DNA of 47,073 bases from a virus (IMGVR_UViG_2534682139_000016:1-47073), one strand, 5' to 3'; shown: positions 3,720 to 4,493, counted from the first letter of the stretch. Notes: generated from the sequence alone by a model not told the origin. A program made the numbers and translations.

Positions 3720-4493
3720 ATGGATATTACTGAGTTTCCTTCTGGAGTAATTGAACACCTTGGCTGGTATGTATACCGATTGATTGATCCGAGGGACGGA
3801 AGCACCTTCTATGTAGGGAAAGGCAAAGGTAACCGCGTATTTGCCCATATGCGCGGTGAAGTGGCAGCGACTGATGATGACGAGTTACTGAGCAACAAGC
3901 TAAAGCAAATTAGAGAAATAAGGTTAGCAGGACTTGAAGTTATCCATGTCATCCATCGACACGGAATGACTGATGAAAAGACGGCGTACGAAGTTGAAGC
4001 TGCACTTATTGATGCCTACCCTGGGTTAACGAATATCATGAATGGTGCTGGCAGCAATGAATTCGGCGCCGCGCATGTCAAAGAGTTGATAGCAACATAT
4101 CAACCCGAAACCATAATATTTCATCATAAAGCATTAATGATTTCCGTTAACAGAAGTGCAAAGGATTCAGAGCTTTATGATGCGGTTCGATTTAGCTGGC
4201 GCATTAATGTCTCTCGCGCCAGCCAAGCAGAAGTCATTCTTGCTACTGTAAGGGGGATCGTTCGAGGGGTTTTCATTGCTGATAAATGGCTCAAATCAAC
4301 ACGTGAAAATTTCCCTACGATGAAATACTGGGACGAGGATCCTGACTTTGAGGCAACACAAAGTTCTCGCTATGGTTTTGAAGGTCGAGAAGCCCCACCT
4401 GAAATAGCAAATCTTTATCTTGGAAAAAAAATACCAGATGAATTAAGAAAAAAAGGAGCTATGTCCCCGGTCCGTTACTCACCTAATTTTTGA
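3720..4493 (+). CDS. GIY-YIG nuclease-domain protein with uncharacterised C-terminal domain
   Basis: N-terminus [29 protein letters not shown] fits GIY-(10-12 aa)-YIG with the conserved Arg ~9 residues later; 257 aa. Confidence 0.65.

Follow-up and report, generated by a model that had tools for sequence, protein, structure and literature searches.

Genes of the locus and prophage setting

The analysed window is a viral stretch of 47,073 nucleotides (IMGVR_UViG_2534682139_000016:1-47073). The features discussed here are listed in Table 1. An open reading frame (ORF) with ATG start, coding for 257 amino acids plus stop, was found on the plus strand at 3720..4493. The sequence-only reading had described it as a stand-alone GIY-YIG gene between a restriction-modification (R-M) pair and a Pin invertase, transcribed divergently from the methyltransferase. 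Coordinates, strand and neighbours all agree with this description, the methyltransferase (1880..3313/3355) lying on the minus strand.

Table 1 Features of the locus with strand and evidence; positions refer to the window, except for the two jumbo-phage homologues, which are counted on the loci L007 and L008
Feature	Position	Strand	Evidence or remark
ssrA (tmRNA), prophage attachment site (right end)	40..402	+	ARAGORN
EcoRII-type type II restriction endonuclease (context)	631(637)..1845	+	Pfam EcoRII-N 3.9e-61, EcoRII-C 3.6e-71; PADLOC REase_II 4.4e-234
EcoRII/Dcm-type C5-cytosine methyltransferase (context)	1880..3355, RefSeq start 3313	-	Pfam DNA_methylase 4.7e-78, DNA_meth_N 7.1e-27; NCBIfam PRK10458 1.5e-279
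Conserved leader of CMoRE, about 200 bp	3519..3719	+	Five-locus alignment; BLAST breakpoints
CMoRE / PD-T4-3 coding sequence (very probable assignment)	3720..4493	+	ORF, PADLOC, phrog_5356 and PDB matches
N-terminal GIY-YIG ('GIYxY-YIG') nuclease domain, about aa 1-115 (approximate boundary)	3720..4064	+	Pfam and residues
Acidic run D52-D53-D54-E55 of the active-site loop, autoinhibitory 'safety catch'	3873..3884	+	Sequence; mutagenesis of the O157:H7 enzyme
C-terminal modification-sensing domain, about aa 125-257 (approximate boundary), including Y127	4092..4490	+	Co-crystals of the orthologue
Hairpin between the convergent CMoRE and pin genes	4513..4551		RNA fold
pinE-type serine DNA invertase (context), convergent with the ORF	4551..5141 (RefSeq CDS 4551-5105)	-	Pfam Resolvase 7.5e-52, HTH_7 8.8e-13
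Jumbo-phage homologue, Serratia phage Moabite	L007:2501-3265		Also Klebsiella phage N1M2 and others
Jumbo-phage homologue, Pseudomonas phage OBP	L008:2492-3253

A BLAST comparison of the 3' end of ssrA with the window revealed a second copy of the final 32 bp of this gene (371-402) at 43462-43493. ssrA and this repeat bracket a prophage region of about 43 kb. An integrase (40023-41198), a ParA-type ATPase (41449-42300) and ORFs without assigned function, including 42706-43371, precede the repeat, and a second integrase (43617-44888) follows it. With the ParA-type module between integrase and repeat and the second integrase beyond, ssrA may be the site of a composite or tandem island.

E. coli 2015C-3163 matches the window with 99.9% identity, except for one IS3 insertion in 2015C-3163. 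The annotation of 2015C-3163 gives an e14-like early region (ymfL, ymfR, ymfQ, stfP, pinE), an HK97-type head and a Mu-type contractile tail (sheath, tube, DNA circularisation protein, gp46/gp47 baseplate). On the far side of the invertase, the ORF and the R-M pair lie at the very right end of this e14-like prophage. The slot past the tail-fibre invertase is occupied by mcrA in e14 of strain K-12 (L002:5686-7180) and by com/mom in Mu (L009:4093-5603). The resemblance to the com/mom position beside gin of Mu-like phages, which had been pointed out before, is borne out by the Mu record with its order G segment, gin, com, mom, right end.

Further observations concern the rest of the prophage. The invertible tail-fibre segment beside pin (5132-7267) looks decayed; in the RefSeq annotation of 2015C-3163, stfP, the tail-fibre gene and both tail-fibre-assembly genes are frameshifted or partial. 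An IS3-family copy is present at the far end of the window (45806-47073), and the extra copy of 2015C-3163, inserted in the DUF968 gene (at about 29960), is absent from the window. Two co-directional genes on the plus strand (27020-29412) occupy a classic site of morons, with the Q antiterminator on one side and the lysis cassette on the other. An NA37 nucleoid-associated domain (E 1.2e-23) was recognised in one product, of 391 aa, and the other product, of 404 aa, has no Pfam family; no PADLOC model matched either of them.

Identity and domains of the protein

The same 774-nt coding sequence, with 100% identical DNA, is found in RefSeq as WP_000355481.1, 'LEM-3-like GIY-YIG domain-containing protein'. 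At least 18 complete E. coli genomes share a 1.2-kb locus with the intact ORF at 100% DNA identity. The PADLOC model PD-T4-3 (PDLC04031) matched the ORF with E 4.7e-140, amino acids 1-256 being aligned to model positions 1-255 of 256. Thus, the PADLOC search proposed together with the sequence-only reading returned a single-gene defence system at full length. The protein was also matched by phrog_5356 (E 2.3e-143). In the PDB sequence search two matching sequences, representing four entries, were obtained: 9u75_A (9u75/9u8d, 'GIY-YIG domain-containing protein' of E. coli O157:H7) with E 2.4e-171 and 252 of 257 residues identical, and 9u7u_A (9u7u/9u7z, CMoRE of E. coli APEC O1), likewise over the full length, with E 7.1e-150. 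No family was found for the protein in NCBIfam, nor did megablast find the locus in cultured-phage genomes.

CMoRE is the name used for PD-T4-3 by Liu et al. (Nat Commun 2026; PMC12923530), and its crystal structures are PDB 9U75, 9U8D, 9U7U and 9U7Z. PD-T4-3 was first found in E. coli ECOR68 via functional selection (PMC9519451); in the accessible part of that paper's text only 'a GIY-YIG nuclease' is spoken of, and the term 'PD-T4-3' does not occur there. The window protein and the O157:H7 chain differ at five positions, all conservative (T51A, E55D, I133T, Q169K, N197H). The same five differences constitute the exact allele of O157:H7 strain PA20, and none of them falls on a residue to which the CMoRE paper assigns a function (PMC12923530). 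All residues named there were found in the window protein, namely Y17, Y19, Y31, the acidic run 52-55, R80, V92, L96 and Y127. Very probably, the ORF encodes an intact CMoRE (PD-T4-3) orthologue, a modification-dependent type IV restriction endonuclease directed against T-even-type phages. As far as a sequence can tell, the window protein has every property of CMoRE/PD-T4-3, and nothing in it counts against this identity. The system is already known: for the 98% identical orthologue, an E. coli prophage enzyme, both structure and biochemistry have been determined. Of the functions considered beforehand, a defence nuclease is therefore the one retained, full-length PD-T4-3/CMoRE being a validated defence against T-even phages.

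The GIY-YIG signature described earlier is present as G15-W-Y17-V-Y19-R-L, F30-Y31-V-G33 and R39. In the profile search, Pfam LEM-3_GIY-YIG (PF22945) matched above cut-off (E 2.2e-14, aa 28-110) and the generic GIY-YIG family below cut-off (aa 16-100). The fold was hence recovered; a housekeeping repair assignment was not supported, as only the catalytic core is covered. Y17, Y19, Y31, R39, E93 and N105 are invariant in the alignment even in phage homologues of 40-46% identity. Y19 is the third tyrosine between the conventional Y17 and Y31 that characterises 'GIYxY-YIG', and it is kept down to 40% identity. The two catalytic residues typical of GIY-YIG folds, Arg and Glu, are present as well; the numbers R39 and E93 were assigned here from pattern and invariance. 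Both residues are called conserved in the CMoRE paper, the accessible text giving no residue numbers (PMC12923530). The acidic run reads DDDE as in APEC O1, and DDDD in O157:H7; a four-residue acidic run is reported for 'most', not all, members of the CMoRE family (PMC12923530). V92 and L96 are found at the putative tetramer interface, a role known from the O157:H7 orthologue.

For amino acids from about 111 to 257 no Pfam, NCBIfam or annotated PHROG family was found. The earlier statement that the C-terminal part is unrecognised is thus correct with respect to domain libraries, but the stretch comprises about 130-145 aa and not about 160. Three of the differences from 9u75 (I133T, Q169K, N197H) fall in this domain, in which Y127 is invariant in the alignment. 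The key point missed by the sequence-only reading is that this domain senses modified cytosine: the 'unrecognised' part is the published 5hmC/5ghmC reader of CMoRE.

Distribution, neighbours and expression signals

The CMoRE ORF was found in 838 of 5,426 complete E. coli genomes (about 15%), always with at least 95% identity. The junction with the methyltransferase, a divergent AT-rich spacer of 364-406 bp, was found in 242 of these genomes (29%). In genomes without the methyltransferase the BLAST match begins at query position 420, corresponding to window position 3519. An alignment of five loci with differing upstream neighbours gave the same picture, with homology from about 3519 and differing sequence further upstream. 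Hence, about 200 bp of upstream sequence belong to the gene, and this leader (3519-3719) accompanies it in every genomic context examined. Elsewhere the gene is accompanied by an AraC-type regulator in O157:H7, by another restriction endonuclease in APEC 102026 and by dinI/tRNA-Pro in LD91-1. The varied neighbours together with the shared breakpoint at 3519 characterise CMoRE as an independent cassette, and the link to the EcoRII-type pair as co-location in a cargo slot. CMoRE thus travels as a compact unit of leader and ORF near the tail-fibre/invertase end of e14-like prophages.

The EcoRII-like pair was detected with at least 99% identity in 263 records. Over both EcoRII-like lineages 421 matching places were counted, 153 of them on plasmids. 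The pair of the window (631-3355) is only about 80% identical in DNA to the E. coli plasmid version, which points to a distinct prophage-borne lineage. In one locus (L011:2538-6182) an IS2-associated deletion has taken out CMoRE, pin and the tail genes, sparing the R-M pair and 55 bp of the leader. In another, only the 200-bp leader is left beside an IS4 insertion (L010:5001-6228). It was considered that the leader might drive alternative cargo elsewhere; this was rejected, as the single leader-only locus inspected is the IS4-disrupted remnant and the R-M-only locus is the IS2 deletion.

Within the leader a weak sigma-70-like candidate promoter was read by eye (-35 TTGTGA 3656-3661, 17-nt spacer, -10 TAATAT 3679-3684); with 8 of 12 hexamer positions matching, it is a suggestion only. 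A stricter consensus scan gave neither a plus-strand promoter nor a terminator around the gene, and the region before the ORF shows neither a strong consensus promoter nor a Shine-Dalgarno sequence. A 28-codon ORF in the leader (ATG 3575) was discarded, because a 1-nt indel in a T-run would break the frame in two of the five aligned loci. The hairpin downstream of the gene begins at the pin stop codon and has a 13-bp stem, with -17.2 kcal/mol on the plus and -23.2 kcal/mol on the minus strand; it is likely a bidirectional terminator. Rfam, searched for 3300-4600, gave only sub-threshold partial matches, IsrM with 13.6 bits and CssrB with 31.5 bits against a gathering score of 76 (4517-4556, minus strand, E 0.0003). 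Thus, the leader contains no known RNA element. The CssrB match overlaps the hairpin, and this Shigella sRNA model may include the terminator downstream of pin.

Mode of action, alternatives and related systems

The function of CMoRE was described for the orthologues. Expressed from its native promoter, the O157:H7 enzyme reduced plating of T2, T4 and T6 about 10^5-fold, and the cells grew normally at MOI >1 (PMC12923530); the latter indicates a direct and not an abortive defence. T4 without glucosylation was still restricted, whereas T4(C), the phage with plain cytosine, escaped (PMC12923530). The purified enzyme needed Mg2+ or Mn2+ and bound and cut DNA with 5hmC and 5ghmC, but not C or 5mC DNA. 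Cleavage followed the pattern CN11/N9G with 2-nt 3' overhangs and required two modified cytosines (PMC12923530). By mutagenesis, Y17, Y19 and Y31 were each shown to be essential (PMC12923530). A 15-residue acidic loop covers the active site, and the '4A' mutant, with alanine at all four positions of the acidic run, cut unmodified DNA and was toxic. The tetramer was broken by V92S/L96S, and interface mutants were inactive (PMC12923530). [quoted passage not shown] For the C-terminal domain the authors found neither sequence nor structural relatives (PMC12923530). Independent evidence for the function comes from two other groups, who worked with a Capnocytophaga homologue and with a PD-T4-3 deletion in the natural isolate NILS69 (both below).

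The mechanism was established with the 98% identical O157:H7 enzyme, from which the following steps are transferred to the window protein via sequence identity. The protein would form a tetramer as a dimer of dimers, in which each C-terminal domain would bind 5-hydroxymethyl- or glucosyl-hydroxymethyl-cytosine on the domain edge. One dimer would read two modified cytosines about 21 bp apart, and the N-terminal GIYxY-YIG domains would cut between them (CN11/N9G) in the presence of Mg2+ or Mn2+, leaving 2-nt 3' overhangs. The acidic loop with DDDE 52-55 over the active site is predicted to repel ordinary and 5mC DNA. Host DNA would thereby be spared, including DNA methylated by the EcoRII/Dcm-type methyltransferase nearby. 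The expected outcome is a direct, non-abortive destruction of incoming DNA of T-even-type phages, presumably those whose hypermodification evades the adjacent EcoRII-type enzyme.

GIY-YIG domains also occur in selfish and in repair nucleases, and both origins were considered. A free-standing homing endonuclease, spreading by cutting the cognate empty site, had been among the earlier proposals; the GIY-YIG domain is the catalytic domain of I-TevI-type homing enzymes, and the catalytic core has a weak match to phrog_314 'homing endonuclease' (E 0.0038). Moreover, the homologues of jumbo phages are labelled 'putative homing nuclease'. However, no NUMOD, IENR1 or HTH module was found in Pfam (E<=1), neither intron nor intein was found, and the gene lies in prophage cargo slots and not inside or between conserved essential genes. 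The C-terminal domain of the orthologue binds 5hm-dCTP and thus reads base modification; its cleavage pattern is set relative to modified cytosines, and the depletion of the T4 genome in vivo revealed no strict sequence requirement (PMC12923530). The probability of a homing function is accordingly practically negligible, and the same has to be said for a UvrC/Cho/LEM-3-type nuclease serving DNA repair, be it for housekeeping or for the prophage. LEM-3_GIY-YIG is indeed the best Pfam family, and UvrC is the closest structural neighbour of the nuclease domain of CMoRE (PMC12923530), but the likeness is confined to the catalytic core of about 85 aa. Neither a UvrC C-terminal endonuclease/HhH nor an ankyrin or LEM domain was detected with Pfam, NCBIfam gave no match, the gene is restricted to prophages of 15% of the E. 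coli genomes, and the experimental substrate of the orthologue is hmC DNA (PMC12923530).

If the ORF is CMoRE, two further objections concern its partners and its expression. As a third component of the EcoRII-type system, for instance a back-up nuclease run from the shared divergent intergenic region, it would explain the AT-rich spacer, the precise junction kept in 242 genomes and the complementary targets, unmodified CCWGG versus hmC DNA. Such a partnership, also suggested by the sequence-only reading, is extremely unlikely. The junction is missing in 596 of the 838 CMoRE genomes; the other neighbours are unrelated, the gene has its own conserved leader, and the orthologue protects when cloned alone with its own promoter (PMC12923530). 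Conversely, the EcoRII-type R-M pair occurs alone on plasmids and, after the IS2 deletion of CMoRE, on the chromosome. Pairing of the methyltransferase with the ORF as a type II GIY-YIG enzyme was rejected likewise: no such PDB chain was found at E<=0.01, linkage is at 29% and not obligate, and the methyltransferase is already paired with an EcoRII-type enzyme. The flanking genes vary among the loci, as is typical of a single-component system. CMoRE is thus a neighbour of the R-M system and not its partner. More weight, although still quite unlikely, has to be given to an intact gene that is silent or ineffective in the lysogen, owing to a weak promoter or prophage-dependent regulation, and provides no native defence. 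Neither a consensus promoter nor a Shine-Dalgarno sequence was detected, the APEC O1 allele showed weak activity from its native promoter (PMC12923530), and one phage was restricted by PD-T4-3 only when the gene was plasmid-borne. On the other hand, the O157:H7 allele with its nearly identical upstream region protects about 10^5-fold from the native promoter (PMC12923530), the deletion of PD-T4-3 in its native host, the natural E. coli isolate NILS69, led to sensitivity to Tevenvirinae, and gene and leader are kept with at least 95% identity across hundreds of genomes. Because of the weak APEC O1 allele, expression of CMoRE from this prophage is an assumption.

CMoRE and the R-M pair are independent modules and not one system. 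Their targets would nevertheless be complementary, as unmodified CCWGG is cut by EcoRII and the escaping hmC DNA of T-even phages by CMoRE. Since 5mC is not a substrate of CMoRE, the resident C5-methyltransferase is harmless and the two systems are compatible. One prophage end would hence provide a layered defence, with the EcoRII-type enzyme against unmodified DNA and CMoRE against hypermodified escapers.

Among cultured phages only homologues at the protein level were found, mainly in jumbo phages, with 32-46% identity. Virulent jumbo phages of about 250-285 kb carry full-length homologues of CMoRE with 39-46% identity and 97-99% coverage, annotated as 'homing nuclease' or 'hypothetical'. 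These homologues retain Y127 and the catalytic residues but lack the autoinhibitory acidic run (KDASN / PHSTD). These proteins could be a weapon against co-infecting hmC phages.

The invertase-adjacent slot looks like a recurrent cargo position for 'modification warfare', with mom in Mu, McrA in e14 and CMoRE plus EcoRII here. A homologue from Capnocytophaga with 48% identity degrades the DNA of T4 and spares that of the cytosine-containing T4-GT7; at high enzyme concentration it also degrades Mom-modified Mu DNA. The slot might be dedicated to DNA-modification warfare, and E. coli CMoRE might also restrict Mom-modified Mu-like phages and thereby exclude close competitors; we regard this as conceivable but doubtful. 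If true, Mu-like phages that share the tail type and the invertible host-range segment of the prophage would be excluded alongside T-even phages.

In comparison with known systems, the GIY-YIG catalysis for restriction is shared with the type II enzymes Eco29kI, Hpy188I and Cfr42I, and as with these a methyltransferase is located next door. These enzymes cut specific unmodified sites and depend on their cognate methyltransferase. In contrast, the methyltransferase of this locus belongs to an EcoRII-type PD-(D/E)XK enzyme. McrA (EcoKMcrA) of e14 in K-12, annotated as methyl-directed type IV enzyme, is likewise a modification-dependent nuclease directly after pinE at the prophage end. It is an HNH nuclease, has no sequence relationship to CMoRE and is oriented oppositely relative to pinE. 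PvuRts1I and AbaSI resemble CMoRE in their N-terminal nuclease and C-terminal modified-cytosine reader, in the specificity for 5hmC/5ghmC and not 5mC/C, and in the 2-nt 3' overhangs at fixed distance (PMC4027163, PMC4081097). No sequence match between these enzymes and the window protein was obtained in the PDB search. The folds are unrelated: PvuRts1I combines a PD-(D/E)XK nuclease with an SRA domain and its base-flipping pocket (PMC4027163, PMC4081097), whereas CMoRE combines a GIY-YIG nuclease with a reader without known structural relatives, which binds the base on the domain edge. With CMoRE of O157:H7 and APEC O1 the window protein shares the length of 257 aa, the two-domain architecture in a single gene, all named residues and the position beside pinE at the end of an e14-like prophage. 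Compared with O157:H7, the identity is 98% and the upstream neighbour differs, with an AraC-type regulator there and the EcoRII-type R-M pair here; judged by the sequence, a functional difference from the O157:H7 allele is not expected.
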